Assembly: GCA_031406395.1 (NCBI GenBank)
Contig: JANOHH010001131.1
Location: forward strand, 1 to 31,590
Length of the DNA: 31,590 nt
Source: Verrucomicrobiota bacterium
Lineage (GTDB): Bacteria; Verrucomicrobiota; Verrucomicrobiia; Limisphaerales; JADLHS01
Direction of reading: 5' to 3'
Numbering within the stretch: the first letter of the stretch is position 1; each line of letters begins with the position of its first letter. The position numbers and the translations under genes are program-made. Below are positions 1,446 through 22,573 of the stretch, piece by piece. The notes beneath the pieces were generated by a model. The model ran no database searches. It was not told the origin of the DNA and saw only the letters and a program-made list of their open reading frames with translations.

Positions 1446-1488
1446 CCTCAAAAACAAAGTATTGTGAACCCAAGGTTCTTCCTATAAT
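1446..1488 (+). promoter_or_regulatory. Shared operator-like box plus sigma70-like promoter for the MFS gene
   Basis: CCTCAAAAACAAAGTA-TTGTGA-N15-TATAAT. Perfect -10 but short spacer. The box matches the 14888-14906 copy at 15/19. Confidence 0.55.
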
Positions 1489-1618
1489 GAGTTGCAATTA
1501 TCCCAAGACCAAATATGTAGAATTCATGAATTTAAACGCACCAAAGCAGCGGCCGCATGGAATCGTTGGTGACGAGTGGCGCGTCCGGCGAACCGCCGTT
1601 TTGCCGTGGGCATAGGTT

Positions 1619-2962
1619 GTGACCATGCCGCTCCAACCACCATCTGAGGCCAAACGCCTCATGCGCAATAAAACCTACGAACGCTGGCGCTGGCAAATCT
1701 TTGGGATCACCTGGCTGGCGTATGCGGGCTTCTACCTTACGCGCAAAAGTTTTTCCGTGGCGAAAAACGAATTGAAAAAGGTGGACGTGATGGGGTTGAC
1801 CAAGGGCGACATGGCCTGGATTGACGGCGCGAACTCGGTCGCCTACGCGCTGGGCCAGTTCTTGTTCGGCTCCTTGGGCGACAAATTCGGCACGCGGACG
1901 ATCATCCTGCTCGGCATGCTCGCGTCCGTTACCACCGCGCTGGCGATGGGTTTCGCCAACAGCGTGCTGATGCTGGGTGTGCTCTTCGGCCTTCAAGGCT
2001 TGTGCCAGGCCAGTGGGTGGGCGCCGCTGGCCAAGAACGTCGGCGAATTCTTCTCGCAACGCGAACGCGGCACGATCATGGGATTCTGGTGCACGAATTA
2101 TGCGCTGGGCGGCTTCCTCGCGACCACGTTGGCGGGCGTCGCCGCGCAGAAGTTTGGCTGGCGCTTCGCTTTCTTTGTGCCGGCGGGCGGCTTGTTGGTC
2201 ATCTGGGTGCTCTTCCTTTTGTTCCAGCGCAACCGGCCCGAGGATGTGGGCTTGCCCCCCATCGAACAATATCACGCCGAGCCGGAAGCTGTGCTCGATG
2301 CACGCGAGACGCCGGCGGAAGAGTTGGAAGGCTCCTGGAAAGTCGTGGGGGAAGTATTGCGCAACCCAATGGTGTGGCTCTTGGCCGCCGTCTATTTTCT
2401 GGTCAAGCCGACGCGGTATCTCATTCTCACCTGGTCACCGGTTTACATCAACGAACTGCTCGGCACGAGCACCGCGAGTTCGGGATTTCTCGGGAGTCTT
2501 TTCGATCTGGCTGGACCGGTCGGGACCCTGGCGGGTGGTATCATTTCGGACCGCCTGTTCAAGTCCAAGCGCATTCCGGTATGCGTAATTGCGTTGTTTT
2601 GCACGGCCCTGGCGATGGTCGCCTTCCGGTTTCTGCCTCATTCCCGCCTGGCCATTGGTGCCGGGATGTTTGTCATCGGCTTTCTGGTCTTCATCCCCGA
2701 CTCGCTCATCAGCGGGGCGGCGACAATTGATTTTGGGACGAAGAAAGGTGCTTCCACCGCCAGCGGGCTGGTTAACGGTTGCGGCTCCATCGGCCAAATT
2801 CTTGGTGTTACCCTTCCCGGTTGGGCGGGAAACATCGTCGGGCAAGGACAGGACATCTGGAACCCAATTTTTCTGTGGCTCGGAGTGGCACTGGCCGTTG
2901 CGGGATTGATTCTTATGCCGCAGTGGAATCGTCTGCCAGCCACCGCGAAAGCCACAACTTAG
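1619..2962 (+). CDS. MFS transporter, GlpT/UhpT (organophosphate:Pi antiporter / SLC37-like) family
   Basis: RWRWQIFGITWLAYAGFYLTRKSFSVAK, GSLGDKFGTR, GLCQASGW, ERGTIMGFW and ~12 hydrophobic segments. Exact start uncertain (1619, 1625 or 1661). Confidence 0.9.
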   Translation: MTMPLQPPSEAKRLMRNKTYERWRWQIFGITWLAYAGFYLTRKSFSVAKNELKKVDVMGLTKGDMAWIDGANSVAYALGQFLFGSLGDKFGTRTIILLGMLASVTTALAMGFANSVLMLGVLFGLQGLCQASGWAPLAKNVGEFFSQRERGTIMGFWCTNYALGGFLATTLAGVAAQKFGWRFAFFVPAGGLLVIWVLFLLFQRNRPEDVGLPPIEQYHAEPEAVLDARETPAEELEGSWKVVGEVLRNPMVWLLAAVYFLVKPTRYLILTWSPVYINELLGTSTASSGFLGSLFDLAGPVGTLAGGIISDRLFKSKRIPVCVIALFCTALAMVAFRFLPHSRLAIGAGMFVIGFLVFIPDSLISGAATIDFGTKKGASTASGLVNGCGSIGQILGVTLPGWAGNIVGQGQDIWNPIFLWLGVALAVAGLILMPQWNRLPATAKATT

Positions 2963-2983
2963 TTTTGCCGGCCACCGGTACGC

Positions 2984-5431
2984 TCAAACCATGATCTTTT
3001 CGTTTTTGGGATCGAACGGTGGTTGCAACATGGCTCGAGCGGGATATTGTTTACCCGCGAAGTCGATGGTGTATTGGCCGCTCGTGACAAACTCCGGCGT
3101 GATGATGTCGTCGCTCTTCACGTAACCGAACGCCAACGCGCGGCCTAGCGTGAACCCGTAGTAGCCTGAAGTGGTCGTGCCCATGAGCTTGCCGTCACGG
3201 AAAATGCGCTCACCGCCCCAGAGCATCGCGTCAGGGTCCTCCACCACGAAGGAGGCGAGGCGACGTTTGACCCCGGTTTCTTTTTGCTTCAGCAAAGCCT
3301 CCTTGCCGATGAAGTTCGTTTTCTTGTCCAGCTTCACCATGAAACCGAGCCCCGCTTCATAGGGGGTATCGCCGGGGGTAATTTCCGCACCCCAGGCGCG
3401 GTAGGCCTTTTCCATGCGAAGCGAATTGATGGGGTAAAAGCCCGCGTGGGTCAGTTCGTACTTTTTCCCCGCCGCTTGCAGGGCGTCGAACACTCCTTGA
3501 ATCTGATCCATGCGCGCGTGCAGTTCCCAGCCAAGTTCACCAACGTACGTGATCCGGATCATAAGGACGTTGGCGTTGGCCAGGCTGTGCCATTGGGTGG
3601 TGCTGAACGGAAAAGCTGTGAGTGAAAGGTCGGCGTCGGTGAGTTCGTTAAGCAACTTGCGGGCGTTCGGTCCCATGACGCCCAACACGCCGTAGGCAGG
3701 AGTCACATCCGTGATCGTAGCCCGCTCTTCCGGAAGGATGTGTTTGTGGATCCAATAAAAATCCCGCGTCGGCTGCCCCGAGCCGGTGATGATGTAGTAT
3801 TGGTCCTCCGCGATCCGGGCGAAACAGAGGTCGGACTCGTAGCCGCCCCGCGCATTCAGCATCCCGCTATAGAGGAATTTGCCGACGGGCATGTCCACGT
3901 GCCCCGGCGAGAGGCGGTCGAGGACGCGAACGGCGTCGCGCCCTTGGAGCATGAACTTGCTGAACGAGGATTGATCCCAGACCGCGACGTGTTCGCGCGC
4001 GGCGCGATGTTCGGCGGCGACGCAATCCCACCAATTCTGGCGGCCGAAAGAGTAAGCCATTCCCGGCTGGGTGCCTGGGCGCGGGAACCAAATAGGGCGT
4101 TCGATGGCCATTTTGCTCCCGTGGAAGGCGCCGAGCAAGTTGAGCCGATCGTACAGCGGGCTTTTGCGCGTGCCGCGGGCGCTCTCCAATTCGTAATTCG
4201 GCCAGGCCATCCGATACTGGAGGCCGGCTGTCTCCGTCACCCGGTGGCGCAGGAAATCGCGGTTGTTTTGGAACGGCGAGAAGCGGCGAATGTCCACGCC
4301 CCACAAATCGTAAGGCTGCTCGCCTGCCAGAATCCATTGCGCCAGCACCTCGCCCGCACCGCCGGCGTAAGCGAGGCTGTGGCCGTTGAAGCCCGCCGCC
4401 ACAAAAAGCTGATCCACCTCCGGCACCTCGCCGATGATGAAGTTTGTGTCGGGCGTGAAGGTTGCCGGGCCGTTGACCATTTTCTCGAAGGGCTCCTGCC
4501 CGAGCGCGGGGACGCGGTGTTGCGCCGCCTTGATCGCGTCGGCAACGTAACTCCGATCTTCCGGCAGTGGTTTGCCGGCGAAATCGGGCGGGATAGGGTC
4601 AACCAAACACGGCTTGCTCTTCTTCGGGAACGTGCCGAGGATAATCTGCCCGCGGTCGTCGGTGCGGAAATAAATCGCCGCGTCCGGATCGCGCACACAG
4701 GACAGATCGGCGCCCGCGCCCGGGACCGTTTTCGAGATGAGGTAGGGATGCTCGACCGGATACACCGGCACGTTGGCGCCGAATTGCAGAGCCAGTTGCC
4801 GGGACCACATCCCGGCACACAGAACAACCTGCTCGGCGGCAATTTCCCCTTGTGCAGTGGCCACACCGACCGCGCGGCCTTCTTTGCGCAGAATGCTCGT
4901 GACGCGTACGCCGGTCACAATGGTCGCCCCGCGTTGTTCCGCGCCTTGGGCGAGCGCGAGCGCGGCTTGCCGTGCGTCCACGCGACCCTCGGCGGGCAAC
5001 CACATGGCGCCGCGAATATCTTGCGTGTCGAGGAGCGGCCATTTTTGCTTTGCCTCATCCGCGGTGATGAGGCTGACATCCAGTCCCGAGGCCTGCGCCA
5101 GCGGCACGGCGCGGCGATACTGAATCATGCGCGCCTCCGTCTGTGCCAACACGAGCGAGCCAACCGGTTTCCAGCCGGTGGCGATGCCGGTTTCCGTTTC
5201 AAGCGCGGCATAGAGTTTGGCGCTGGCGTCGATGAGTTTGCGCAACCCCGCTTGCGGTGCGCCGCCGACCAGACCGGCCGCGAACGAAGTCGCGCCACCG
5301 CCAATTTCACCTGGTTCCAGCAGCACCACCTCGCGACAGCCTTGTTTCGCCAGGTGGTACGCGACACTGCAACCAATGATGCCGCCACCGACGATCACAA
5401 TGCGGGTTTGTTTGGGGAGGGAATGGCTCAT
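2984..5431 (-). CDS. GcvT-family FAD-dependent oxidoreductase (sarcosine/dimethylglycine dehydrogenase-like, 815 aa)
   Basis: N-terminal VIVGGGIIG Rossmann motif, TFTPD, FAO_M-like DIRRF, GcvT-like DQSSFSKF, ITYVGELGWELH, SLRMEKAYRAWG and C-terminal PPFDPKNEK. Confidence 0.92.
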   Translation of the reverse strand: MSHSLPKQTRIVIVGGGIIGCSVAYHLAKQGCREVVLLEPGEIGGGATSFAAGLVGGAPQAGLRKLIDASAKLYAALETETGIATGWKPVGSLVLAQTEARMIQYRRAVPLAQASGLDVSLITADEAKQKWPLLDTQDIRGAMWLPAEGRVDARQAALALAQGAEQRGATIVTGVRVTSILRKEGRAVGVATAQGEIAAEQVVLCAGMWSRQLALQFGANVPVYPVEHPYLISKTVPGAGADLSCVRDPDAAIYFRTDDRGQIILGTFPKKSKPCLVDPIPPDFAGKPLPEDRSYVADAIKAAQHRVPALGQEPFEKMVNGPATFTPDTNFIIGEVPEVDQLFVAAGFNGHSLAYAGGAGEVLAQWILAGEQPYDLWGVDIRRFSPFQNNRDFLRHRVTETAGLQYRMAWPNYELESARGTRKSPLYDRLNLLGAFHGSKMAIERPIWFPRPGTQPGMAYSFGRQNWWDCVAAEHRAAREHVAVWDQSSFSKFMLQGRDAVRVLDRLSPGHVDMPVGKFLYSGMLNARGGYESDLCFARIAEDQYYIITGSGQPTRDFYWIHKHILPEERATITDVTPAYGVLGVMGPNARKLLNELTDADLSLTAFPFSTTQWHSLANANVLMIRITYVGELGWELHARMDQIQGVFDALQAAGKKYELTHAGFYPINSLRMEKAYRAWGAEITPGDTPYEAGLGFMVKLDKKTNFIGKEALLKQKETGVKRRLASFVVEDPDAMLWGGERIFRDGKLMGTTTSGYYGFTLGRALAFGYVKSDDIITPEFVTSGQYTIDFAGKQYPARAMLQPPFDPKNEKIMV

Positions 5432-5480
5432 GGTTTTCCCAATTGAATCAAAGTTGTTTCCTTTTCAACCTCGAGGACGT

Positions 5481-6713
5481 TCAAGGTTTCGTGAGGCCGT
5501 AGTACTCAGCGTAAATGCGCGAAGCGCTGGCTTGGGCGCCGGGCCAGGTCCATTTTGAATCGCTAAAGCGGTTGGGGCTCAGGCTTTGGACGTAGGGCGA
5601 TGGCTTGGGGTCGAGCAGGGATTCGACGACGTGACGGCCGATGCCAGCCGAACCAGAGACCCCGTGGGCGTTGCAGCCGCCCGCCATGACGAAGCCTTTG
5701 ACTTTCTCCGTCGGCCCAATGATAAAGCGGCCATCGGGCGTAAAAGTCGGCCAGCCTTTGAAGACGCTGCGAATGCCGAGGTCCGACGCTTTGGGAAAAT
5801 TCGGGATGAGATCTTCGGCGAATTTGGCCAGGACATCCCAATCCGGCTCGATGCCGGGTGGATTTCCCTGCAACGCATATTTCCGCGGGTCGGTGTGAAG
5901 CGGATTCGACTCCCAACCACCCAGGAGCAGGGCATTGACGTCGGTGCGGATGTAAAGGCTGAGGTCAGGAATGCGGATGACCGGGAAATTCGGCGTCAAC
6001 CCCGCGCACGGGACACTGATAAAATATTCGTGGCGCACCGGAACGATCGGCAATTCCAAACCGACGAGTTTGGCGATGTGAAACGCGTGGGCCCCGGCGG
6101 CATTGATGACGGTGTCGCAGCGGATCGTTCCTTTGTCCGTCACCACGCCCGTGACGCGGCCGTCTTTCGTCAGGATTTGTTCCGCCGCCGTGTTGACACT
6201 GAACTGCACGCCGCGGCGCCCGCTCTGCGAGCAATAACTCGCGGTCAAATCATACGGCTGCAAATAGCCCTCGGTCGGACACCAGAGAATGGATTTGGCC
6301 ATGGAAAAATTCATCCCCGGCCACTTTTCTTCCGCGACTTTCGGTGTGATATACGCCGTTTCCAAACCCGCCTGATCCGCGATCGCCTTCATCCGCTGGA
6401 ATTCTTCCACCCGCGCAGCATTCAATGCCACGCGGAGCGAGCCCACCTGCCGCCAGGTCGGATTGGCCTTCGTGTCCTTTTGCAATTCGGAAAACGTTTT
6501 GACCGACCACATGGCGAGTTGGGTGCGCTCGAGGGTGGCGCGCACCTGGCCGACCAGTCCAGCTGCCTGGGCCGAGGTGGCTGCGGCAACCGATGACTCC
6601 TTTTCAATGAGGAGGATGTCGGTTTCGCCCGCCAGCGCCATTTGATAGGCCGTGCCGCAGCCGACCGCGCCGCCGCCGATAATGACAATTTTTGCGTCTT
6701 TGATCTTGCTCAT
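5481..6713 (-). CDS. FAD-dependent oxidoreductase (DAO family), dehydrogenase module only, no GcvT/folate domain
   Basis: IVIIGGGAVG, AAGLVGQVR, VINAAG, PTFTPDGRFIIG, GCNAHGVSGSAGIG. Collinear with the first ~410 aa of the 815-aa neighbour. Confidence 0.88.
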   Translation of the reverse strand: MSKIKDAKIVIIGGGAVGCGTAYQMALAGETDILLIEKESSVAAATSAQAAGLVGQVRATLERTQLAMWSVKTFSELQKDTKANPTWRQVGSLRVALNAARVEEFQRMKAIADQAGLETAYITPKVAEEKWPGMNFSMAKSILWCPTEGYLQPYDLTASYCSQSGRRGVQFSVNTAAEQILTKDGRVTGVVTDKGTIRCDTVINAAGAHAFHIAKLVGLELPIVPVRHEYFISVPCAGLTPNFPVIRIPDLSLYIRTDVNALLLGGWESNPLHTDPRKYALQGNPPGIEPDWDVLAKFAEDLIPNFPKASDLGIRSVFKGWPTFTPDGRFIIGPTEKVKGFVMAGGCNAHGVSGSAGIGRHVVESLLDPKPSPYVQSLSPNRFSDSKWTWPGAQASASRIYAEYYGLTKP

Positions 6714-6754
6714 GATATTTTATCCTGCGGTCATTGCCTGATTAAAACTTCTGG

Positions 6755-7723
6755 TCACACAGCTCCATTAAGTTTGGTGATCATTTGCGGGACAAGTTCG
6801 TATAGATCGCCGACGAGACCGTAGTCGGCCACTTCGAAAATCGGCGCATCCGGATCGCTGTTGATGGCGACGATGGTCTTGGAATTCTTCATCCCCGCCA
6901 GGTGCTGGACCGCGCCGGAAATACCCAGGGCAATGTACAGTTCAGGCGCAACCACTTTGCCCGTTTGCCCGACTTGAAATGCGTTCGGCGTGATGCCCGC
7001 GTCCACCAAGGCCCGCGAACTGCCCGTCGCCGCGTGCAGTTTGTCCGCCAAGCCACCGACCAGGCGTTCGAAGTCTTCGCTGCTCTTGATGCCGCGCCCG
7101 CCGGAGACGACGATGCGCGCTTCGGTCACGTCGGGGCGGCTGGAAAGCTTGGACTGCAGGGTCTCGAATTCAGTCTTCTTTGGCAAGGTCGCTTCATCCA
7201 TTGCTACGTTCGTGATCGTAGCGCGTTCGGCGCGCGCGCTGGCAGCCGGGTAGGCCGACGGACGAATCGTGACAATCTGCGGATTGCCACAGAGCGCCAC
7301 GGTCGCAACGACGGCTCCGGCGAAGAGCGGTCGGCGAAAACAAAGCTGGCCGTGGCGGAACTCATGTCCAATCACTTCGCTGGCCATCGCGCCCCCAAGC
7401 AATCCGGCGGCCCGCGGCAAAATATCTTTCGCGAAGGGGGTCGCCGCGGCGACCACCAAATCGAAACCGCGTTGCTTGGCCACGTCCGCGATGACCTTCG
7501 CGTAGCGATCGGCCACGGGATTGGCCAGCGCAGGATGGTCAGCAAGCAACACGGGGGCGTACGCCGCCGCATCCTGCGCGACCGCCGCGAGCGAGTGGCC
7601 GAGCAGGAGGCATTCGATGCTGCCTCGGGTCGGCTCCGCGACCGCATTGGCGAAGGCGACTGCCGAGCGGCTGCCGAGGCGGATGCCTTGGCCATCATGT
7701 TCGCAGAGGATCAGGACACGCAT
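6755..7723 (-). CDS. etfA: Electron transfer flavoprotein alpha subunit
   Basis: [50 protein letters not shown]. Start set at ATG 7723 (MRVLILCEH). Confidence 0.95.
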
Positions 7724-7733
7724 GGATTTCACT

Positions 7734-8486
7734 CTAAAGCACTTTTTCCTCGTCACGCAGTCTAACGAGCAATTCATCGAGGTTGCCGACGCGCACGCTT
7801 TTGCGCCGCGAAGGTACGGCCTCGAGGCCGAGCAATTGCAGACGCGGCTCGATCGTCACGCCAAGTTCGGCCACCGGGATGCGTTCGATGCTTTTTTTTC
7901 GCGCTTTCATGATGCTCGTCATGGAGGCGTAGCGCGGTTCGTTGAGGCGGAGGTCGGCGGTGACGACAGCGGGCAGGGGGACGCGAACGATTTCCAGCCC
8001 CGCATCGGTTTCGCGGGTCACGCGCAGGCCACCGTTGAGGAATTCGATCTTCGAGGCGAAGGTCGCCTGGGGCCAGTCGAGGAGCGCGGCGAGCATCTGC
8101 CCGGTCTGATTGAAATCATCGTCCACGCCTTGCTTGCCCATGAGAATCAAATCGGGCTGAAAACGACTGGCAAATGCCCGGAGAACGCAGGCCACGTTCC
8201 AGGAATCGAGCGGTGCGTCGCAGAGAATCAGCGATGCGTTGTCTGCGCCCATCGCCAGTGCGGTGCGGAGCTGCGGCTCGCAGGCCTCCGTGCCGACGGC
8301 CACGGCCAGCACTTCGACCTCGTCGGTGGATTTCTCCCGAATCCGCAATGCCTCTTCCACGGCGATCGCGTCAAAAGGATTCATCACGAACGGCAGTCCG
8401 TCCGTGACGATGCCGGAACCATCGGCTTTGACCTGAATCTTCTGATCCGTGTCAGGGACACGTTTGATGGGGGCGAGGATTTTCAC
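7734..8486 (-). CDS. etfB: Electron transfer flavoprotein beta subunit
   Basis: MKILAPIKRVPD, MNPFDAIAVEEALR, ALAMGAD, GKQGVDDD, LNEPRY. GTG start. Confidence 0.95.
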   Translation of the reverse strand: MKILAPIKRVPDTDQKIQVKADGSGIVTDGLPFVMNPFDAIAVEEALRIREKSTDEVEVLAVAVGTEACEPQLRTALAMGADNASLILCDAPLDSWNVACVLRAFASRFQPDLILMGKQGVDDDFNQTGQMLAALLDWPQATFASKIEFLNGGLRVTRETDAGLEIVRVPLPAVVTADLRLNEPRYASMTSIMKARKKSIERIPVAELGVTIEPRLQLLGLEAVPSRRKSVRVGNLDELLVRLRDEEKVL

Positions 8487-8592
8487 GCGGTTAAGCGTAA
8501 CGCCCCAGCGACCGGCCGTGGCAGCGCGCCTTCAGCGAAGCCGGTGACGTTGTAAAACCAGTAACTCATAAAACTGCAACGCATAGCCCCGC

Positions 8593-8703
8593 TTAGCTGA
8601 GGACGATGACTTGCTGGCGGCGCATGGCCAGTTGCTTGGCGGTGCTCAAGCCCGCGCCGCCACCACCGACGATGAGGACATTCGCGTTGGAGCGTAAATT
8701 CAT
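8593..8703 (-). pseudogene. Remnant of an FAD-dependent oxidoreductase (Rossmann N-terminus only)
   Basis: Translated by hand: MNLRSNANVLIVGGGGAGLSTAKQLAMRRQQVIVLS*. A beta-alpha-beta GxGxxG motif that stops after 36 aa. Confidence 0.7.
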
Positions 8704-8761
8704 TCCGTTGCTTCCGTTTTGTGAATCGAGAAACGAAAACAAACCTTTTCCACCCTGCGCA

Positions 8762-10078
8762 TTACAATCCCTTCCCCTTGAGCATCTCTAGGTACCAGCG
8801 CACAAAACCATCCACGTTGTATTCCTTGTAGGTCGAATACGGCCCGGGCGTAAAGGCGCTGGAATTGACGCCGCGCTGCTGGCGTTCACAAATCTCCCAG
8901 TCCTGTTCAGAGGTGAGCTGCCAGAAGGGCATCAGTTTTTCCAACTGGTAATCGCGCCCGGCCACCGCCTGCGCGTCCACCAGCCACCACACGCGGATGG
9001 CGGTGAGTTGCGGGCCGAGCGGGAGCAGGCGCGTGCTCACGGCGTGGTCGCAACTGGAATGGTTCCAGAAGTTGGGGAGCGTGCGAATCCGCAAGGTGCC
9101 GACATCGGCGTCCTGATAATCCCCCATCAACGGCGCGACACGTTTGCCATCCATGGTTTCGGACAGGTAACCGTCCACGAGCGGCGTGCGATTGGCGGAA
9201 AACCAGATGTTCTTTTCGGCATTGGGAAACGTCGTCATGCCGGTCTGGGTGTGCGTAGGGGCGAGACCCGCGGCCGCCCATTTCTTGTCGCTGCGCGCGA
9301 CCACTCCACTGATTTCCCGCTGGATGCGCGGCGTGGTGTCGTCGGCATTGTAGTGGTCGAAGTTGGCCTTGATGTATTGCGGATGATTGAGGTTGCAATG
9401 GTAGCACTCGCGGTTGTTTTCCCAAACCAGCTTCCAGTTCGCTTTGACCAAGTAATCCGTGGCCTGGGCGACCTTCGCTCGGTCGAATCCCTGCGGCTTC
9501 GCCAGGGGCGCGAGGAGTTCGTGGGCCGGCTCGAAGCTGGGTGGCTCCGCGGCCAGTGACAGGTAAATCAACCCGCCCGCCTCCCGCACGTGGACCTGCT
9601 TCAAGCCGAACTGGGATTTGTCCAGTTCGTGCATCCCGCGGCAGGAGAGCAAGTCGCCGTTCAGTCCATACGTCCATTGATGGTACGGACAAACCAGACG
9701 CGCGACGTGGCCCGCTGCCTCGTGACAAATGGGGGAGCCGCGATGACGACACACATTGTTCAGGGCATGAACCGAGCCGTCTGAACCACGAATCACGATG
9801 AGGGGATCGGCATCCACTTGCAGGGTGAAATAATCGCCCGGCTTGGGAATCTCGCAGGTATGCCCGGCAAAGAGCCAGCCGGTTCGCCAGACCCGGTCAA
9901 GGTCGGCGCGATATACCGTTTCGTCGGAATGAAAGCTTCCGGGTAACGCCCAGCCCGGACGACATTCGGCCAACAATGACTCGACCAAACCCGCCACCGC
10001 GCCGCCGACTTTGCGCCGTGGGCGCGGACGGCTTTCTCGCCGGCCACCTCCTCGCAGTTGATTTCCAGTACGCTGCAT
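8762..10078 (-). CDS. Rieske non-heme iron oxygenase alpha subunit, glycine-betaine demethylase (GbcA/BmoA/Stc2)-like
   Basis: Rieske ligands CRHRG...CPYHQW, iron site ENNRECYHC...HPQY and EQDWEICE...QRG, and WWLVDAQAVAGRDY resembling GbcA-type C-termini. Start may be GTG 9997. Substrate not certain. Confidence 0.88.
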   Translation of the reverse strand: MQRTGNQLRGGGRRESRPRPRRKVGGAVAGLVESLLAECRPGWALPGSFHSDETVYRADLDRVWRTGWLFAGHTCEIPKPGDYFTLQVDADPLIVIRGSDGSVHALNNVCRHRGSPICHEAAGHVARLVCPYHQWTYGLNGDLLSCRGMHELDKSQFGLKQVHVREAGGLIYLSLAAEPPSFEPAHELLAPLAKPQGFDRAKVAQATDYLVKANWKLVWENNRECYHCNLNHPQYIKANFDHYNADDTTPRIQREISGVVARSDKKWAAAGLAPTHTQTGMTTFPNAEKNIWFSANRTPLVDGYLSETMDGKRVAPLMGDYQDADVGTLRIRTLPNFWNHSSCDHAVSTRLLPLGPQLTAIRVWWLVDAQAVAGRDYQLEKLMPFWQLTSEQDWEICERQQRGVNSSAFTPGPYSTYKEYNVDGFVRWYLEMLKGKGL

Positions 10079-10090: not shown

Positions 10091-10135
10091 ATCGTAGGTG
10101 GATAGTTCGCCAGTCTCAATAACCTGTTTGGGGGG
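10091..10135 (-). promoter_or_regulatory. Shared box plus sigma70-like promoter for the Rieske/ETF/dehydrogenase operon
   Basis: Minus strand CCCCCCAAACAGGTTA-TTGAGA-N17-TACGAT. Confidence 0.65.
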
Positions 10136-10200: not shown

Positions 10201-13200
10201 TCAGTCGTCATCGTCGTCTTTGGCGTTCTTCACGAGCACCAAGCCGAGTTGCTTTAGCCCCTTCCCATGGCCGCCGACGAACTTGGCGGGGTAGCGGGCC
10301 TCGCCTTTGTTGATGTGCCAGATGTAGCGGTTGAACACGTCGTCGTTGATTCGGTCAGGTTTGCTGAAATCCATCTTCTGAACCTTCTTCGCATAGTAAC
10401 GCTGCTTGGGCGACAGCTGGCTTGCGACGACACTCTCGGTCAGTGGAATGTTGTTGGGCAGCGCGGTGTAGGGGGTGAAATTGGGGACATTGGTGAAACA
10501 TTCGAACATGATCGGGGCCATGGCGTCCTGCTGGTTCATGGGCGGCAGGCCAAGGATGCGCTGCATCGTGTGCAGAACCCCGGCTTGATTGTAGAAAGTG
10601 CTGAGGACTTGGCCGCGCTTCGTGTAGGGGCTGATGACGAGGCAGATTGAGCGGTGACCGTCCACGTGGTCGTAGCCACTCTGTGGATCGTCTTCGATGA
10701 CGAAGATCACAGTGTTGCTGGCGAAGCTGCTTTTGGTAATCGCCTCCACCACCTGGCCAAGCGACAGGTCGTTGTCGGCAACCTGGGCGCGGGGCGAAGG
10801 GTCGCCGCCGGTGTGGTCATTGGGCAGGTAGAGGAGATGGAACGAGGCCCAGACGCCGTTGGATTGCGCGGCATTGAGTTCTTTGATAAAGCCGCGAGCC
10901 CGGACGACATCGGGGATGTTCATGTTCCAACCGGGGACATTCGTCGAACTGTAGGGGCGCAGCGCGGCGATGCCGATGTTCTGGACGTAACGGATCGTGT
11001 CGGTGTTGTTCGTGTAATCCTGGTAGATCTGCAACCAGGTCTTGGCGGGCGACGTGGAGGCGTAATCCATCTCACCGTAGTTCCGGAATGTTAACCCGTG
11101 CTGCAGAACATTGTTCCAAATGAAGCCCGTGGAGGAATACGTGAGCGGGTCGTCGCCGAATGTGTAGCTGCGACTGAAACCGCCAAAGGCTTTTTCCAGA
11201 TGGTCGCCGCTGTTGCCTTCGGTGCTCCAGGAGTGGCCATCCGCCGAGAGAACGCCGTTGCAGTAGAAATTATCGAGCAGGACGTATTGTTCCGCCAACG
11301 CGTGATGATTGGGTGAAACCAGTCGTGGATAAATGCAGAGGCTGGGATCGCCGTTGCCCTGCGGGAGGTCGCCGAAAATTTGATCGTAGGTCTTGTTCTC
11401 CTTCAGGATATAAACCACGTGCTGAAATACGGATGGCTCACCCCGGCGCCGCGGCACCGGCACGGGTAGTTGGCCGGCGAGCGGCCCTTGCTGGGCCTGT
11501 TTGATCTGGGGAACGCGACCGGCCTCAAAGGCCTGCGCGGTGTATTTGCTCAGCGGCTCGGCCGTGGGGATCGGAATTTTGTTGGCGCTGCCGAGGTGCG
11601 CTCCGATCTGCCAGGAGGTGGTGACGGGCTGACCTAAACGGCTGCCCAAGCCTTTCACATTGGCGACATAGACGTGATTGCCGTCCGCCACCACGGCGCC
11701 GGGATACCAGTCAGTGGGGAGAAATCCCTGGATGAGACTGTTGGTGTGTTGCGCGTTGGGGAGCTCGACCACGGCGAGGGCGTTGTTCCCGCCGCTGGCC
11801 ACGAACAACATGGATTCGTCCTTGCTCAGCGCCAGTCCCGTGCTCGCACTGCCATACGGGAACGTGGGATCGGGCCGCACCAGGATGGTTTCCTTCACCG
11901 CCCGCGTCGCGGTGTTGATCACGCTCACGGTGTCGGAGTTCGCGTTGGCTACATAAAGGGTCTGGCCATCAGCGCTCAGTTCGAGATCGCAGGGATGCAA
12001 CCCGGTTGCCGTCTGCGCGGTTTGCAAGCCGGTCAGCAGGTTCACGAAGGACACAACGCCGCTCGCGGCCACACCACGGCTGTCAATTACCACCTGCGTG
12101 CCGGCGGAAGGCGCGGTCAGATCACCGCCCGTGGGGAAGCGACCGCCCCAATCGGAAACGTAGGCGGTGTTACCATCCGGGGCGAGAACCACATCCCACG
12201 GCGCAATACCCACGGTGATCTGCTGCGTGACGGTGCCAGTGGTGAGATTCACGACGGCCAGCTTGTTGGCGATCGAGAGACAGACGTAGGCTTTGGAATC
12301 ATCGGCGGCGATGGCGAGGCCGCAGGGATAAGAGCCGCCGGGCAGGGCGATGGTGCGCGAAAACGTGACGGTGCCATTCGCGGCCACGGCCCATTCGTAG
12401 AGTTCATTCCCGGCGCCGGTCACATAGATATGCGAACCGCTGTGACGCATCGCGATCCCGTGCATCGAAGCGCCGCTGCCAGGGTAACTCGCAGTTTGCA
12501 CCAACGTCCAGGTCGCGGCCTCCACCACGAGCAGGTTGTTGATATTTTTGATATAGATGAATTTCCCGTCGGGCGAGAGCACCAGATCCACGGGCCGGCC
12601 GCCGAACTGAATTTGTTTTCCAGCCGCGCGGAGGATTTGTTTCGACGGAACGGATTGCTCACCGTCAGGCAACTGGCCAACCAAGAAGTCGGGCTTGAGC
12701 TGGCCGACACGATAGAACGTCGGTGTACCGCTGATGGGAACGCTGAGGCTGCGATTGGTGATCGCGCTGGCGACCACCGACCAAGTCGGGGCCAACAAAT
12801 TTGTCATCCGCTCCACAAAACACACGCCGTCGGGCGCCGTCCAATTCAAGGTGACAGACGCCACGCTGGTAGTCAGGTTCGTGATGCGGATCGCGGCGTT
12901 GCCGGGCGGCAGGCCATCGGGCGTCGGCCCGCCAAGCGCAGCGATGGCGGCGGGTGTCATCCAGCCGTTTACGAACTGAATACTGTTCACGAACCCCGAC
13001 TGCGTGAATCCACTGACCCCGGCGGTGAAGAGCTGCGCCGTCGGCCCCAAGGCGTAACGGCCATCCACGCCTCCCGGCAGCGCTTGGCTACCCACGCTCA
13101 CGCCATTCACGTACTTCGTGAGTTGCTGGCCCGCCGGGGCGGTCAGGTCCACCGCAAACGCCAGACGATACCAAGCATCCGGTGCCAAGGGGCCGTTGAA

Positions 13201-14802
13201 CTGGCCATTGGCACCAATGCCGTTCGGATCCGGGAGCGCGCCGAGATTGCCGATGAGATATTCCGCGTCGTTGCCAACGTGATTAAACGGGTCGGTTTGG
13301 AACAACGCCCGCCATTCGTCGCTGCTCGGCGCCGGATACATCACGTCCAGGAGCAAGGTGTATTGATTGACGAACTGGCCGCCGCCGTTGGGTTTGGCCC
13401 CATGGCGCAAATAACAACCCTGGTTGATGGTGTTGCTCCCGAACCCCATCACCTGCGCCGAGTGGCCGATGATCGTCATGCCCGGAAAACTCGTGATCGT
13501 CGCGGTATCCGCGAGATACTCCAGCTCGGCGCCGACCGTCGCCCGCAGATCCCCGAAATCAAAATCCCATTGCCCGGTCACGACTGGCACGTAAACCGTC
13601 AAGCTGGCGCCGCCACTTTCGATGGCGCCGGAACTATTGCTTACCACTACGGTGTAAACTCCCTGATTTGCGCTGCTCACGGTCGCGATGGCATAACTGG
13701 CGTTGGTGGCCCCAGGGATATTGGTGCCATTCAACCGCCATTGATAACTGAGCGGTGGTGCGCCACCGGCAGTGACGGTGAAAGTAGCGGTGGCACCCAC
13801 GCTGACATTCAAGCTGGGCGGCGCATTGGAGATGACCGGGAGGGCGCCGGACGTGATGCTGTAAAGCCCGAAATTATCCACACCGAAGTACCAGCTATCG
13901 GTGCCGGCATGGGCGAAACGGAAGCGGACGGCCGCTTGGTTGTCGGCCGCGGTCAGGCGAAACAATTCCACGCGCTTGGATTCCACCGAGTTATCGTCCA
14001 CCCGCGCGCTGATGTTCGTGGCCAATGATTGCGAGATGGAGGCCCCGATGAAAGCCCCGTAAGATCCGCCATAGGATTTGCCGCCGATGAAGTTGGTGGC
14101 CACATCGGAGTAGCGATTGGTCAACGTTTTGTCGGCATCAACGCCGCCATTGCCGAGCGTGAGCACATCTGGGCCGTCCAACATGTAAACGACGGGCAAC
14201 CACGTGGCGCCGCCGTTCACGGAATATTCCACCGCCCCAAAGCTGTCCTGGTTTTGTTCAAAGAGACTGTGGTACGAGACGTAGATGTTAGTCTGGCCGC
14301 TTAGATTGAAATCGGGCGAAAATAAGTATTGAATCTGACTGCCCTCACGCCAACCGGACGTGCAGAACATGAATCTGCCCTGGGCCAGATTCGTCACCAC
14401 CTGGCCATTCACCACGTTGGCCGGATTGAAAGCCAGGACGCGCGAATAGTCCTGCGGCGTTTGGGTGGTGTAAGTCAAAAAATTCGAAGCGAACCGACTG
14501 CGATCCACCACCAGCCAACCCGCGTACGGGACGGAAGCCAGCTCCAGCAGATTGGAATTCAATTGCGGCAGGGTTGAATAGTTCGTCCGCGACCAACCTG
14601 CCGGCAGGCCGCCTTCAGGGACGGCGTCGAAGGTTTCAAGATGGATTGGCAGCGGCAGGGTGATGGGGACAGCCAGCGCTGGAGCGACCAAGCCCATGCA
14701 GGCGAACGTCAAAAGGCCGAAACCTGCGGGCAGGAGGCCGAAGCCAGAATTCCGACCACTGCTTTCTGCCCTCCGGCTTGGGATACCGCAAAGATATTTC
14801 AT
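10201..14802 (-). CDS. Secreted multidomain protein: unknown beta-sandwich domain B, Ig-like, LamG-like, YncE beta-propeller, PLC/AcpA-type phosphoesterase
   Basis: Signal-like LLTFACMGLVAPALA, Ig motif PLSYQWRLNG...GVYTVVVSN, LamG-like NQYTLLLDV...YVNG, propeller repeats (VGIAPWDV, YVANANSDTVSVI) and phosphoesterase HVVYILKENKTYD / PNHHALAEQYVLLDNFY / DDPQSGYDHVDGHR. ATG 14838 is an alternative start. Confidence 0.88.
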   Translation of the reverse strand: MKYLCGIPSRRAESSGRNSGFGLLPAGFGLLTFACMGLVAPALAVPITLPLPIHLETFDAVPEGGLPAGWSRTNYSTLPQLNSNLLELASVPYAGWLVVDRSRFASNFLTYTTQTPQDYSRVLAFNPANVVNGQVVTNLAQGRFMFCTSGWREGSQIQYLFSPDFNLSGQTNIYVSYHSLFEQNQDSFGAVEYSVNGGATWLPVVYMLDGPDVLTLGNGGVDADKTLTNRYSDVATNFIGGKSYGGSYGAFIGASISQSLATNISARVDDNSVESKRVELFRLTAADNQAAVRFRFAHAGTDSWYFGVDNFGLYSITSGALPVISNAPPSLNVSVGATATFTVTAGGAPPLSYQWRLNGTNIPGATNASYAIATVSSANQGVYTVVVSNSSGAIESGGASLTVYVPVVTGQWDFDFGDLRATVGAELEYLADTATITSFPGMTIIGHSAQVMGFGSNTINQGCYLRHGAKPNGGGQFVNQYTLLLDVMYPAPSSDEWRALFQTDPFNHVGNDAEYLIGNLGALPDPNGIGANGQFNGPLAPDAWYRLAFAVDLTAPAGQQLTKYVNGVSVGSQALPGGVDGRYALGPTAQLFTAGVSGFTQSGFVNSIQFVNGWMTPAAIAALGGPTPDGLPPGNAAIRITNLTTSVASVTLNWTAPDGVCFVERMTNLLAPTWSVVASAITNRSLSVPISGTPTFYRVGQLKPDFLVGQLPDGEQSVPSKQILRAAGKQIQFGGRPVDLVLSPDGKFIYIKNINNLLVVEAATWTLVQTASYPGSGASMHGIAMRHSGSHIYVTGAGNELYEWAVAANGTVTFSRTIALPGGSYPCGLAIAADDSKAYVCLSIANKLAVVNLTTGTVTQQITVGIAPWDVVLAPDGNTAYVSDWGGRFPTGGDLTAPSAGTQVVIDSRGVAASGVVSFVNLLTGLQTAQTATGLHPCDLELSADGQTLYVANANSDTVSVINTATRAVKETILVRPDPTFPYGSASTGLALSKDESMLFVASGGNNALAVVELPNAQHTNSLIQGFLPTDWYPGAVVADGNHVYVANVKGLGSRLGQPVTTSWQIGAHLGSANKIPIPTAEPLSKYTAQAFEAGRVPQIKQAQQGPLAGQLPVPVPRRRGEPSVFQHVVYILKENKTYDQIFGDLPQGNGDPSLCIYPRLVSPNHHALAEQYVLLDNFYCNGVLSADGHSWSTEGNSGDHLEKAFGGFSRSYTFGDDPLTYSSTGFIWNNVLQHGLTFRNYGEMDYASTSPAKTWLQIYQDYTNNTDTIRYVQNIGIAALRPYSSTNVPGWNMNIPDVVRARGFIKELNAAQSNGVWASFHLLYLPNDHTGGDPSPRAQVADNDLSLGQVVEAITKSSFASNTVIFVIEDDPQSGYDHVDGHRSICLVISPYTKRGQVLSTFYNQAGVLHTMQRILGLPPMNQQDAMAPIMFECFTNVPNFTPYTALPNNIPLTESVVASQLSPKQRYYAKKVQKMDFSKPDRINDDVFNRYIWHINKGEARYPAKFVGGHGKGLKQLGLVLVKNAKDDDDD

Positions 14803-14862
14803 AGGTTCAAAGTAAACACAATGGATGCGAGCCGGCACGAACCAGCCCGCCGGTTTGATGCG

Positions 14863-14906
14863 ACATTACGCTGCCACCGCGCTTTCACAATGCCTTGTTT
14901 TGGTGG
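14863..14906 (-). promoter_or_regulatory. Shared box plus sigma70-like promoter for the phosphoesterase gene
   Basis: Minus strand CCACCAAAACAAGGCA-TTGTGA-N16-TAATGT. Confidence 0.65.
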
Positions 14907-14995: not shown

Positions 14996-16339
14996 TCACT
15001 TTTGCAGGAACTTCACAACCGCTCCGGAGCGACTGTGGACGTTGAGCTTTTCAAAGATGTTTTTGACGTGGCCATGCACCGTCCAAATGCTAATGCCAAG
15101 GGAGTTGGCAATTTCCTTGTCCAGGTAACCCTTGCTCAGTAGCGCCAGAACTTCGTGTTCACGCGGGGTAAGTTTGGCAAGCTTTCCGGAGGAGGGGTCG
15201 GCGGGCAGCGAAGCGGAAAGCCGTTGGAAGTAATCCCGGATGTGGGCGGTAATTTTTTCGCGGGTAACCGGGCCGGACAATTCTGCAATCGGCTCAAACA
15301 GCCGGAGCGCCGGAGTGCGTTTCAACATATATATCCCGGAGCCACCCGGGGTGGCTTTGAAGAGTTGGTCGGTGTCCTCAAAGACGGAATAGAACACCAC
15401 CACCAGACTGGGCCGGAGGTGCTGTAACTCGTTCAGCGAGGCCATGCCGGGCTCAAGGGGCAGATCCTGATTGGCCAGGACAAAACTCACCAGGCGCCGG
15501 GGTATTTCGCGAAGCGCTTCTGCCACGCGGGCGAAGCTGACGGTGCAGCGGAACCCGGCCTGGCCGCTGGCGCACGCTTCCATCGCGGATCGGATGCCCG
15601 CATCCGGCTCCAGCAGCGCAATGCTTTGTTCCAGCGACGGACGTACTGCAACTTTGGGTGGCTGCTTTGCGTGATCACTTCCCGGTGTGTGGATGGTGGT
15701 GTAAGTCCAGGTAAGCGGGTTGTCCTGCCAACGCAGGGCTATGGACAGCTCGCGGGAAAAAGCGGCATTGGCGTAAGTCCAACCTCGGTTGACCACGGCC
15801 TGATGAATCCGCATGGCCTGGTGGGCGGCTTGGGTTTCATCGCGAGTCCCCAAAGGGAAAAAGTGGCTCCTGTTCGCGTGCTCGATGCGAACGTAGAATT
15901 CGCGGTCGCTCTCGGTACGGGATCGTTCGGGGTCCTTCCGAGCGATGAGTCGGCGTCGCCAGTCCTCAACCTCGGTCGCCGTCGAGCCGGGCGAAATCCG
16001 CGCGCCAGTGTGGAGCTTGGTTCGCAGCGCCGATCCGCTGCGGCCTGTCTTCACATTTTCCCAACCGTGTTCAAGAATGTTTTCGTAAATCTGCCACGCT
16101 TCGCGCGCGGCGGTGGACCGGTTCGCGGCGGCCAGCGAGAAAGTGCACCGCCGCCCCTGATGCTGGATTTTGACGGACCACCCTTTTAGCGCGATGCGTT
16201 GGCCGTCTCGCGTAAAACTATTCTTGAAGAGTCGCCGACGCCAATACGCTGCCTGGAAACCGTTCAGTGAAGGTGACCCTGGGCGGGCCGCCTTCCGGGG
16301 CGCGAGCTTGCTTGGACGCTGCTTGGACATCGGAAACAA
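14996..16339 (-). CDS. Atypical LuxR/NarL-family regulator (two N-terminal repeats, pseudo-receiver, LuxR HTH)
   Basis: C-terminal LTPREHEVLALLSKGYLDKEIANSLGISIWTVHGHVKNIFEKLNVHSR. Receiver-like aa ~239-355 with VLANQDLP in place of VLMDxxLP. Start TTG 16339 or ATG 16330. Confidence 0.9.
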   Translation of the reverse strand: MFPMSKQRPSKLAPRKAARPGSPSLNGFQAAYWRRRLFKNSFTRDGQRIALKGWSVKIQHQGRRCTFSLAAANRSTAAREAWQIYENILEHGWENVKTGRSGSALRTKLHTGARISPGSTATEVEDWRRRLIARKDPERSRTESDREFYVRIEHANRSHFFPLGTRDETQAAHQAMRIHQAVVNRGWTYANAAFSRELSIALRWQDNPLTWTYTTIHTPGSDHAKQPPKVAVRPSLEQSIALLEPDAGIRSAMEACASGQAGFRCTVSFARVAEALREIPRRLVSFVLANQDLPLEPGMASLNELQHLRPSLVVVFYSVFEDTDQLFKATPGGSGIYMLKRTPALRLFEPIAELSGPVTREKITAHIRDYFQRLSASLPADPSSGKLAKLTPREHEVLALLSKGYLDKEIANSLGISIWTVHGHVKNIFEKLNVHSRSGAVVKFLQK

Positions 16340-16825: not shown

Positions 16826-16869
16826 CTGCCCAAATGGGGGGTTGTATCCCAGGCAAGATCCCTTATGAT
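16826..16869 (+). promoter_or_regulatory. Shared box plus sigma70-like promoter for the PEP-CTERM gene
   Basis: CTGCCCAAATGGGGGG-TTGTAT-N16-TATGAT. Confidence 0.65.
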
Positions 16870-16969: not shown

Positions 16970-17680
16970 ATGCGAAAAAGTTCTGTAATCACACCGGTTT
17001 GTTCAGGGCTGGCGATTCTCGCGGGCTCGTTTTCATTCATGGGTACCGCCCAAGCGGTCACCCTTATTTCCGAAGATTTTGAGGGCGCCGCCAACGTATT
17101 TGGCACGGGCACTTACGCTTATGCTTCTAATTACACCTTGGCCAACTTGCTGACACCCGGGGGTGGACTGCAATACATGAAAGGTGGAGCGGGAACTACC
17201 GGCGCGGTGTCCACGAACATTTTCTCCGCCGGCGGCCCAATCAACTTGCTCACCGGCGGGATTACCGGGGCGCAGATTGATGGCGGGTCTGTCGGCTACA
17301 ACCTTTACGCCCAATTCAGCAGCTATCGAACGCAGGGCGATAATGCGACCCTTTCCGTGCAATTCCTTGACGCGGCGAGCAGTCCGCTTGGCGCCTCCCT
17401 CCAGATTGGCGGAGCCGCGTTTGCGGCCGCTTTGCCCACCGGGGCCATCGGCAATTACACGGATGCAAAGGCTTGGGGTGCGGATTCCCTGGCAGGGATC
17501 GTCCCCTTGGGAGCGCGGTTTGCGAACGTTCAGATCTTTGCGGTCAAGACGGCGGGCGGCACCGCCATTGACGGTTACATGGACAACGTCAGTTTTACTA
17601 TTGCAGTGCCCGAGCCGAGTTCCGTGGCTCTGTTGGCCCTAGGCGGTGGGTTGGCGGCATTAGCGCGCCGCCGTCGCTGA
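16970..17680 (+). CDS. PEP-CTERM sorted surface protein carrying one jelly-roll-like domain A
   Basis: Signal peptide ending TAQA-V. C-terminus VPEPSSVALLALGGGLAALARRRR. Confidence 0.93.
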   Translation: MRKSSVITPVCSGLAILAGSFSFMGTAQAVTLISEDFEGAANVFGTGTYAYASNYTLANLLTPGGGLQYMKGGAGTTGAVSTNIFSAGGPINLLTGGITGAQIDGGSVGYNLYAQFSSYRTQGDNATLSVQFLDAASSPLGASLQIGGAAFAAALPTGAIGNYTDAKAWGADSLAGIVPLGARFANVQIFAVKTAGGTAIDGYMDNVSFTIAVPEPSSVALLALGGGLAALARRRR

Positions 17681-17712
17681 ACTTGCGCGTGGCTAAGGCC
17701 ACGAAATCCTTG

Positions 17713-21033: not shown

Positions 21034-21077
21034 CCCCCAAAACAGGGGGTTGTTTTGTTGGGCTGCTGGCGTAATTT
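21034..21077 (+). promoter_or_regulatory. Shared box plus sigma70-like promoter for the prepilin-like gene
   Basis: CCCCCAAAACAGGGGG-TTGTTT-N16-TAATTT. This is the most palindromic copy and could also fold as a terminator-like hairpin. Confidence 0.55.
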
Positions 21078-21114
21078 AGCCGCAACAAACTGAGCGATCG
21101 CACGGAATAATATC

Positions 21115-21930
21115 ATGCCGCAAGTCCGATCTATTCGAGCCCGTCCGCGCCGACGCGAGGTGGGCGCCAAACACTGGCAGCGCACCACTGGTTTTACCCT
21201 CATTGAATTGCTGGTGGTCATTGCCATCATTGCGATCCTCGCCGCCATGTTGTTGCCTGCATTGTCAAAGGCGAAAGGCAAGGCGCAACAAATTTCCTGC
21301 CTTAATAACCTGAGACAGCTCTCGCTCGGTACTCAGCTGTACATAGATGACAGCAACAACTGGTACCCGCCAATCCAGGCCACCGTCAGCGCTGGCTTCG
21401 AGACGAGTTGGCGTTCCTATCTCTTCAACTTGGTTGGAAAGAACGGACAGGTGTACGATTGCCCAACCGAAAAAGAGGAGGTTTACGCCACGGGCTCGCG
21501 TTACAAACTCCCGCCAGCGCCTCAACTCGTCGGCCAGGTGGCCGACGGTGAAATCAAGCTGCTCAGTGGCATCGGCGCGGTGAATGTTCATTGGGAAGGC
21601 GGCGGGGCACCGCCTCCGTTTGGCCGGCCGTACGAGAACAACGTCTGTCGCGCCTCCAAGATCGAGCGACCTGTCAACGTCCTGCTCTTTGGCGACGGCC
21701 ATAGCGACGTGCGCCAGGAGTATCCCAACGACCGGTGGTGGATCTGGAAATATGATGCGGCCAATGCGCCCGGATTCAACCGCGTCGTCCAGGGCGACAA
21801 AGGTGCGGTCCGCCACAGCCGCCGCTCCAATTACGCCAAGGCTGATGGCAGCGCGGCTGCGCTGGATGCCGGTCGCATCCCATGCGACCGCACCGAGTGC
21901 TGGTGGTCGGTGAAAGCCGACCCGCATTGA
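21115..21930 (+). CDS. Prepilin-type N-terminal cleavage/methylation protein with H-X9-DG motif (DUF1559-like)
   Basis: G|[28 protein letters not shown]...SCLNNLRQL and C-terminal [12 protein letters not shown]. Confidence 0.93.
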
Positions 21931-21942
21931 ACCGTTGACCGA

Positions 21943-22434
21943 GTGATGAGGAAATCCCAGCTCCCCCAACTGCTGCTCGCGGTAATCCTGCTGGCCGGCG
22001 CGGGCTTTGGGTTTTACCGCTTTCTCCGCGACGATTCTGGTATATCGGAGCAGACCTTTTTCTACGACCTCAGTGCGGAAAAACTTTTCGCCGCGCCGCG
22101 CGAAGCCCTGCCACCCATTCGCGGAGTAGATAATCCGGAAGCGGACGCCGTCCGGGCCATCGTCATTTGCGTCTCCGGCAACCCCGCGAAGGCGGCGAAC
22201 CAAAGGATTGCCTACCTCGAAAAATACACCCCTGAGTTGAAGCAGAGTCTCGAACTGGTCCGCGCCGGGAAAGCCGAGCCGTTGCCGCGGGGTCAACGCA
22301 AAGGCTTCGTCTTCGTCAAACGCGCCGAGGACAAGGATTGGTTCCGGTCTGACTCGCCGGAGGGCGAGCAGATCATGACCGGCTGGAACGTCCCCGGACC
22401 GGATGGCAAGATGCCCATTGTATGTGTGCCCTGA
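21943..22434 (+). CDS. Hypothetical membrane-anchored/exported protein
   Basis: Single N-terminal hydrophobic helix, 12 bp after the pilin-like gene, FFYDL...VRAIV...IAYLEKYTPE core. ATG 21946 is an alternative start. Confidence 0.8.
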   Translation: MMRKSQLPQLLLAVILLAGAGFGFYRFLRDDSGISEQTFFYDLSAEKLFAAPREALPPIRGVDNPEADAVRAIVICVSGNPAKAANQRIAYLEKYTPELKQSLELVRAGKAEPLPRGQRKGFVFVKRAEDKDWFRSDSPEGEQIMTGWNVPGPDGKMPIVCVP

Positions 22435-22529
22435 CCCCAGGCGGAATACGGATTGGTATTCTCGAATGGTTTGGGAACCACCTCGAGTTGGTGTCCACCC
22501 ACCTCTCACGTATCAACCAATACCTCCAT

Positions 22530-22573
22530 CCCCGAAATGGGGGGGTTGCATCCCGCGGAACATCCATTATGGT
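22530..22573 (+). promoter_or_regulatory. Shared box plus sigma70-like promoter for the 985-aa protein gene
   Basis: CCCCGAAATGGGGGGG-TTGCAT-N16-TATGGT. Homologous to 16826-16869. Confidence 0.65.

Follow-up and report, generated by a model that had tools for sequence, protein, structure and literature searches.

The contig JANOHH010001131.1 of a Verrucomicrobiota bacterium (assembly GCA_031406395.1) raises the question of whether a 19-nt box, recurring at six promoters and abutting the −35 element each time, is the common operator of a local set of genes, and which protein would read it. The window analysed here is this entire contig of 31.6 kb, which belongs to a fragmented metagenome-assembled genome (MAG; 5.37 Mb, 1370 contigs, 78% complete) and whose DNA is contained in freshwater-sediment metagenomes. 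To our knowledge, almost nothing is known on transcriptional control in free-living, uncultured Verrucomicrobiota, and our search of the literature on promoter motifs in Verrucomicrobia found nothing relevant. The results presented below argue that the box and its promoter form a real, conserved operator-promoter module which would define a small local regulon, a fairly ordinary kind of local switch. The candidate regulator, encoded in the middle of the window, is unusual, and its binding to the box is a prediction.

Six copies of the box had been listed in a preliminary description of this DNA, and all of them were recovered at those positions and on those strands, with the sequences as written (Table 1). 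Identity to the copy at 21034, given there as 13-15 of 19 positions, was recounted as 13, 15, 15, 14 and 15 for the other five. Every box is followed by TTGnnn, a spacer of 15-17 nt and TAnnnT, and is directed at the next gene, as had been described. The copies at 16826 and 22530 had been ascribed to one duplication, and indeed they belong to a single duplicated unit of promoter, leader and N-terminal coding sequence, with homology from the left edge of the box through a leader of ~95 nt into 224 codons (64% amino-acid identity). A blastn comparison of the intergenic regions with the genome gave only this duplication and a partial duplication of the 5′ end of the regulator gene, and a repeat or mobile-element origin of the boxes was rejected on that result.

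In order to assess specificity, matches to the 21034 copy were counted in the window and in the remaining genome. At 15/19 or better there were 3 matches in the window versus 0.11 per 31.6 kb elsewhere, at 14/19 or better 5 versus 0.66, and at 13/19 or better 11 versus 5.9; given this last background, the 1446 copy is not significant on identity count alone and needs other support. With a position weight matrix (PWM) built from the six sites, the remaining 5.34 Mb yielded 8 matches of at least 16 bits, compared to 9 in a Markov-3 simulation, that is, no excess outside the window. Neither the six-site PWM nor a refined one revealed credible further members of the regulon outside the contig in the window's own genome, which is weak evidence for their absence since the assembly is incomplete and fragmented. 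The tRNA promoters of the same genome, taken as housekeeping promoters, do not carry the box. Of the 28 tRNA genes, about one third showed a clear promoter of the form TTGAC(A)/N16-18/TAnnnT, whose end lies 11-18 nt ahead of the mature tRNA; the 22 nt upstream of these −35 elements bear no relation to the box. The organism thus uses ordinary promoters of the sigma-70 type, a few of which carry the box in addition.

Conservation was analyzed in 19 loci around regulator orthologues from other Verrucomicrobiota MAGs (297 kb in total), with the expected count taken from the background rate of the window's genome. The six-site PWM gave 20 matches of at least 16 bits versus 0.45 expected (44-fold), and 15 versus 0 at 20 bits or more. 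These matches were intergenic and co-oriented with an open reading frame (ORF) starting 42-173 nt downstream, and they fell into the classes of Table 1, where related genomes and loci carry our designations (G and L, respectively). Gene order varies among these genomes, and the box moves along with both genes and regulator. Pairwise alignment with G001 showed the box and its TTG as an island of identity amid diverged intergenic DNA, and the TAnnnT positions were retained with changed middle bases. Judged by these comparisons, the box was confirmed as a specific, conserved cis-element of a limited gene set, found upstream of orthologues.

We also performed the reciprocal test, in which a PWM made from 24 sites of other genomes only was scanned over the whole genome (~10.7 million positions). 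Ranks 1 to 4 were occupied by 14906 (31.8 bits), 10135 (30.2), 21034 (28.8) and 1446 (19.1), and rank 5, with 18.7 bits, was already at simulation level (2 matches of at least 18 bits in the Markov simulation). Of the six sites, only these four can be called strong, with 16826 and 22530 scoring a weak 11.1 and 8.9 bits. At the 1446 site, G001 is identical in the right half of the box and in the −35 element, and a similar box precedes a DAO-MFS operon in G002. The two weak copies are credible only through position and orthology, namely the PEP-CTERM class in G002 and L032 and one pattern match in G005 that falls, by coordinates only, between the orthologues of the 163-aa and 985-aa genes. In G001, no intergenic promoter was found ahead of the 985-aa orthologue, where the intergenic gap is only ~30 nt. 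The boxes had been picked by hand and by eye, and the 1446 copy (13/19) and the two duplicated ones are individually at background; a chance resemblance, or a general promoter feature of this genome, nevertheless appears very improbable when set against the background rates over the genome, the orthologous loci with their 44-fold enrichment, the outcome of the reciprocal PWM test and the box-free tRNA promoters.

A logo was drawn from 30 sites, whose downstream positions (the −10 element and a single A) had not been used in site selection. The consensus over logo positions 1-22 is CCCCCAAAACAGGnnATTGnGA, beginning sharply at position 1, before which the logo is devoid of information; an uninformative 16-nt spacer, TAAnnT at positions 39-44 and A at position 52 complete the logo. 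Because the −10 element and the A lay outside the selection, they provide independent support for a promoter starting near position 52. Counted from this putative start (the A ~8 nt past TAnnnT), the box would span about −51 to −30, with the −35 TTG as its 3′ end. If the box is counted as 19 nt, its centre would lie ~42 nt upstream of this start, close to the position near −43 proposed initially. Its description as near-palindromic was not sustained, since only three copies are good palindromes. Of its two sides, the C5 tract on the left varies less than the G-rich part on the right, and the sole inverted repeat common to all copies is CAA-N9-TTG. At the fifth position of the −35 hexamer, a C is present in no more than 2 of the 30 box sites, as compared with TTGAC at the tRNA promoters. 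In the window and in the six other genomes with a Rieske-class box, the start of that box lies 56-57 nt before the ATG (57 nt in the window), a distance which leaves ~12 nt from the −10 hexamer to the start codon and would imply a leader of ~5 nt without a Shine-Dalgarno sequence.

The palindromic copies could in principle be RNA hairpins or intrinsic terminators instead of DNA sites, and the 21034 copy was indeed flagged as terminator-like on both strands. However, terminator-like matches were not enriched (19 versus 15.6 in shuffles), no conserved gene ends upstream of 21034, orthologous copies lack a T tail, and boxes of the phosphoesterase class cannot form a stem. The hairpin reading of the 21034 copy was rejected on the shuffle counts and the orthologues, and for the boxes as a whole we regard such an explanation as scarcely credible.

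The protein encoded at 14996-16339 is the only transcription factor found in the Pfam scan of 19 window ORFs. Of 40 related genomes, about a dozen encode an orthologue (44-72% identical along its entire length), and so do further MAGs. A box lies within ~100 nt of the 3′ end of the regulator gene, or in its divergent upstream region, in G001, G004, G005, G006, G015, G028, G034, L029, L032 and L034. A search with the consensus, allowing at most one mismatch, returned 13 sites in the 12 genomes with an orthologue versus 2 sites in the 29 without, and the two genomes concerned (G021 and G029) both carry more distant relatives of the regulator. No orthologue of the regulator was found in G027 and G031, two genomes that are 96% complete, and their Rieske orthologues have no box. 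The Rieske gene of G025 lies ~40 nt behind a gene for a 40%-identical regulator, with which it probably shares a transcript.

The link between the regulator and the box is made by co-localisation and phyletic pattern, and the box could be read by a factor encoded elsewhere, such as another transcription factor or an alternative sigma factor, the adjacent regulator being merely a member of the cluster. The asymmetry of the box, unlike typical sites of GerE dimers, would fit such a factor, and further regulators may lie in the unassembled part of the genome. On the other hand, box and regulator gene remain neighbours although gene order has been rearranged several times, and they do so in at least one other family of the order as well (G028), the two Rieske promoters of the genomes without a detected orthologue have no box, and the −10 element (TAnnnT) and the 16-17 nt spacing are of the housekeeping type. 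Taken together, these points make a factor encoded elsewhere quite unlikely. A specific version, with AAAC as the −35 element of an extracytoplasmic-function (ECF)-type sigma factor, was rejected: two sites, compared by eye at the spacing that such an element would require, shared no downstream motif, and the conserved positions match the housekeeping −10 element.

Regarding the regulator itself, the preliminary description had called it LuxR-type, a wording that did not hold in the quorum-sensing sense. Its C-terminal domain is a GerE-type helix-turn-helix (HTH; PF00196, E 4e-17), but no autoinducer-binding domain (PF03472) was found, the Pfam matches being GerE, a weak Response_reg and a weak Sigma70_r4 only. 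Residues 225-444 consist of a receiver and a GerE HTH of the NarL/VraR type. The profile matches to VraR, NarL and DesR cover residues 225-431 (E down to 5e-24), the receiver region matches the fold of a receiver domain (Z 12.1), and the HTH matches those of GerE, NarL, TraR and RhlR (Z ~10). At the phospho-acceptor position at the end of strand 3 we read an Asn (motif VLANQDLP, Asn in at least 90% of 37 homologues), a placement made by reading the motif against the CheY D57/P61 pattern, as the HMMER alignment is uncertain there. No histidine kinase was found among the 19 ORFs. In the structural model, residues 20-220 appear as two repeats, each of three strands and a helix, in a module of ~220 residues. 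These N-terminal repeats gave no Pfam match, and the module had no Foldseek hit at E ≤0.001. The matches of the VIA fold search were weak but had a theme in common: the list was headed by 6sy0, an AP2 tandem repeat (Z 4.3), and 3jtz, an integrase arm domain (Z 3.8), and further down it contained WRINKLED1, TEM1, ERF and lambda Int. The protein is best described as an atypical NarL/FixJ-type regulator with N-terminal repeats and an Asn acceptor, from a family with no fewer than 448 metagenomic homologues, most of which are annotated as NarL/FixJ response regulators.

The start of the regulator is probably the ATG at 16330 and not that set by the gene caller. About 105 nt of the 5′ end of the gene (16223-16329; the start codon region and the first ~35 codons) are repeated 188 nt further upstream, in the intergenic region (16411-16517, 84-90% identity), where we read CTG in place of the ATG; this upstream copy looks like the relic of a tandem duplication.

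On the basis of these results, we consider it reasonably probable that the regulator binds the box and activates transcription in a class II manner. The box would be its DNA target, set at a fixed position on sigma-70-type promoters, and the protein bound over the −35 region would recruit RNA polymerase to promoters with poor −35 hexamers of their own; the scarcity of C at the fifth position is consistent with this dependence on an activator. The Asn in the receiver suggests that the regulator is probably controlled by something other than phosphorylation. The controlled units would be the major facilitator superfamily (MFS) transporter, the Rieske gene with the electron-transfer flavoprotein (ETF), DAO and DMGDH genes behind it, the large phosphoesterase, and the pair of pilin-like and 163-aa genes. 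The PEP-CTERM and 985-aa proteins would also be controlled, through the weaker, duplicated boxes. Accordingly worded, the earlier claim of one system stands as far as the box links catabolic, transport and secreted-protein genes and adjoins the gene of a GerE-HTH regulator, without the LuxR-type label. Binding, start positions, direction of control and the physiological theme discussed below are what we infer from the sequences.

Several observations weigh against activation by this regulator. The foreign sites were first selected by a PWM derived from the window, and the relatives are kin and not independent samples, so the counts overstate independence. The two weak copies are at background level when taken alone, and the G004 orthologue of these copies no longer has the TTG. 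No box was detected near paralogous regulators in G011 (L024) and on contig C16 of G006 (L026), which may recognise a diverged site. The sole metatranscriptome with related sequence held only short contigs, 90-95% alike, without 5′ ends or coverage of the regulator. Moreover, the fixed geometry would be trivial if the TTG were both operator and −35 element, and a site overlapping the −35 element fits a repressor equally well. The paralogous regulators of G011 and G006, 51-54% identical, lie tail to tail with a 52-56% identical MFS gene.

The same protein on the same box could thus be a repressor, which would block RNA polymerase over the −35 TTG until released by an inducer. A receiver that cannot be phosphorylated, together with the extra domains, could allow release by a ligand, and in several genomes the box lies in the divergent upstream region of the regulator gene itself, as is usual for autorepression. 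Nevertheless, the −35 hexamers are poor compared to the tRNA promoters of the same genome, and the site adjoins the −35 TTG, takes it in and reaches beyond it in the upstream direction only, by ~16 nt, never covering the spacer or the −10 element. A poor −35 element with a site upstream of the spacer is more typical of class II activators (CRP, FNR, LuxR-type sites). Repression is in our opinion unlikely, and activation remains the favoured reading.

The asymmetry of the box could be explained by a more speculative arrangement of three modules, in which a dimer of the GerE HTH would sit on the CAA-N9-TTG arms, including the −35 TTG, and one of the AP2/integrase-arm-like repeats on the invariant C5 tract. 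We put this forward as a tentative and rather doubtful proposal. If true, it would mean a bacterial transcription factor family with AP2-type domains and pseudo-receiver control, with several hundred members in metagenomes.

The promoters and genes of the window and the classes of boxes in its relatives are listed in Table 1.

Table 1. Box-promoters and genes of the window, and box classes in related genomes and loci.
Feature	Where found	Positions	Strand	Details
MFS promoter	window	1446..1488	+	box 1446-1461, TTGTGA 1462-1467, 15-nt spacer, TATAAT 1483-1488
Rieske promoter	window	10091..10135	-	box 10135-10120, TTGAGA 10119-10114, 17-nt spacer, TACGAT 10096-10091
Phosphoesterase promoter	window	14863..14906	-	box 14906-14891, TTGTGA 14890-14885, 16-nt spacer, TAATGT 14868-14863
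PEP-CTERM promoter, weak box	window	16826..16869	+	box 16826-16841, TTGTAT 16842-16847, 16-nt spacer, TATGAT 16864-16869
Pilin-like promoter	window	21034..21077	+	box 21034-21049 with perfect CCCCC/GGGGG arms, TTGTTT 21050-21055, 16-nt spacer, TAATTT 21072-21077
985-aa gene promoter, weak box	window	22530..22573	+	duplicate of the 16826 unit; box 22530-22545, TTGCAT 22546-22551, 16-nt spacer, TATGGT 22568-22573
MFS transporter, GlpT/PgtP/UhpC-like (organophosphate:phosphate antiporter-like)	window	1619..2962	+	Pfam MFS_1; NCBIfam TIGR00881, 245 bits, below cutoff
Catabolic gene string behind the Rieske promoter	window	2984..10078	-	profile matches to Pfam/NCBIfam
DMGDH-like DAO-GCV_T protein	window	2984-5431	-	catabolic string
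DAO-family oxidoreductase	window	5481-6713	-	catabolic string
ETF alpha	window	6755-7777	-	catabolic string
ETF beta	window	7734-8486	-	catabolic string
GbcA-like Rieske oxygenase	window	8762-10078	-	419 bits, below the 670-bit GbcA equivalog cutoff
1545-aa secreted protein	window	10201..14838	-	Ig, beta-propeller and PF04185 phosphoesterase domains (domain matches)
Candidate regulator	window	14996..16339	-	two N-terminal repeats, receiver with Asn at the acceptor position, GerE HTH
PEP-CTERM protein	window	16970..17680	+	Pfam scan
TPR-sulfotransferase gene; ADP-ribosylglycohydrolase gene	window			no box ahead of either gene
Prepilin-type N-methyl (pilin-like) protein	window	21115-21930	+	domain matches
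163-aa protein, partner of the pilin-like gene	window	21943-22434	+	gene order pilin-like/163-aa kept in relatives
985-aa secreted protein	window	22674..25631	+	residues 1-224 64% identical to the PEP-CTERM protein
Rieske-class boxes	G001, G002, G004, G005, G022, G028			box start 56-57 nt before the ATG in every case
Phosphoesterase-class boxes	G001, G004, G005, L029			directly behind the regulator gene
Pilin-like-class boxes	G001, G004, G005, G006, G015, G022, G028			
PEP-CTERM-class boxes	G002, L032			degenerate in G004
DAO-MFS-class box	G002			
Additional members: EamA transporters	G001, G006			in G001 followed by a homocysteine S-methyltransferase-like ORF
Additional member: EEP-family phosphatase	G015			

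The catabolic genes may form one operon, in which a gap of 275 nt (8487-8761) separates the Rieske gene from the ETF beta gene. The corresponding interval of G001, G022 and G028 holds ~3 kb more, including a second DAO-family gene, and the difference may be due either to a deletion in the window or to an insertion in those genomes. No box was found ahead of the sulfotransferase and ADP-ribosylglycohydrolase genes. Directly 3′ of the PEP-CTERM gene (17712-17739) there is a strong terminator-like hairpin with 12 pairs, of which 9 are G-C, and a T run behind it, which suggests that the sulfotransferase gene is a separate unit. In locus L020 of G015 (8631-9567), the gene under the box behind the regulator encodes an EEP-family (Exo_endo_phos) protein and not a PF04185 phosphoesterase, another enzyme family in the same slot. 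The stretch 25998-26245 of the window shows 55-64% amino-acid identity to the homocysteine S-methyltransferase-like ORF behind the box-driven EamA transporter of G001. It sits within a long ORF (25646-28576) whose tRNA-synthetase domains begin only at about residue 588, in a different frame by coordinate arithmetic, and the genome has a closer copy on contig C298; the stretch may be what is left of a gene.

The secreted phosphoesterases (PF04185 or EEP), the organophosphate-type MFS and EamA transporters and the GbcA-like/ETF/DMGDH/DAO pathway would fit a common theme, in which a phosphocholine- or betaine-like head group is released, taken up and demethylated. The locus provides a candidate operator, together with the architecture of its promoters (TTG, 16-17 nt, TAnnnT) and a candidate family of regulators that numbers several hundred homologues. 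It also connects the secreted phosphoesterases and surface proteins with an organophosphate transporter and with demethylation of the betaine type, suggesting a coordinated programme by which methylated head groups would be harvested from sediment lipids. Furthermore, it offers a natural test case for the role of the unannotated N-terminal repeats and of the Asn-substituted receiver.

Among known systems, the class II sites of the GerE/LuxR superfamily (the Vibrio fischeri lux box at −42.5 and those of NarL/FixJ activators) resemble the present one in the GerE-type HTH at the C-terminus of the regulator and in a box of ~20 bp that touches the −35 element and whose centre would lie ~42 nt ahead of the putative start. 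In contrast to them, the box described here is asymmetric, with the C5 tract on one side only instead of a 20-bp dyad, the regulator has two extra N-terminal repeats in place of an autoinducer-binding domain, and activation is a prediction. Atypical, phosphorylation-independent NarL/FixJ regulators share the receiver-GerE architecture, the Asn at the acceptor position and the lack of a kinase among the ORFs scanned, but the ~220-residue N-terminal two-repeat module sets the present protein apart. With regard to gene content, the closest comparison is the GbdR regulon of Pseudomonas aeruginosa. GbdR is an AraC-family protein, whereas the regulator here has a GerE HTH, and the set here adds pilin-like and PEP-CTERM proteins. 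In P. aeruginosa, the secreted phospholipase C PlcH and glycine-betaine catabolism are reported to be joined under that single regulator (PMC3572970). The putative regulon of the window, whose enzymes are known by sequence and whose Rieske protein scores below the GbcA cutoff (419 versus 670 bits), likewise joins a secreted PF04185-family phosphoesterase to a GbcA-like Rieske oxygenase and a DMGDH-like enzyme.

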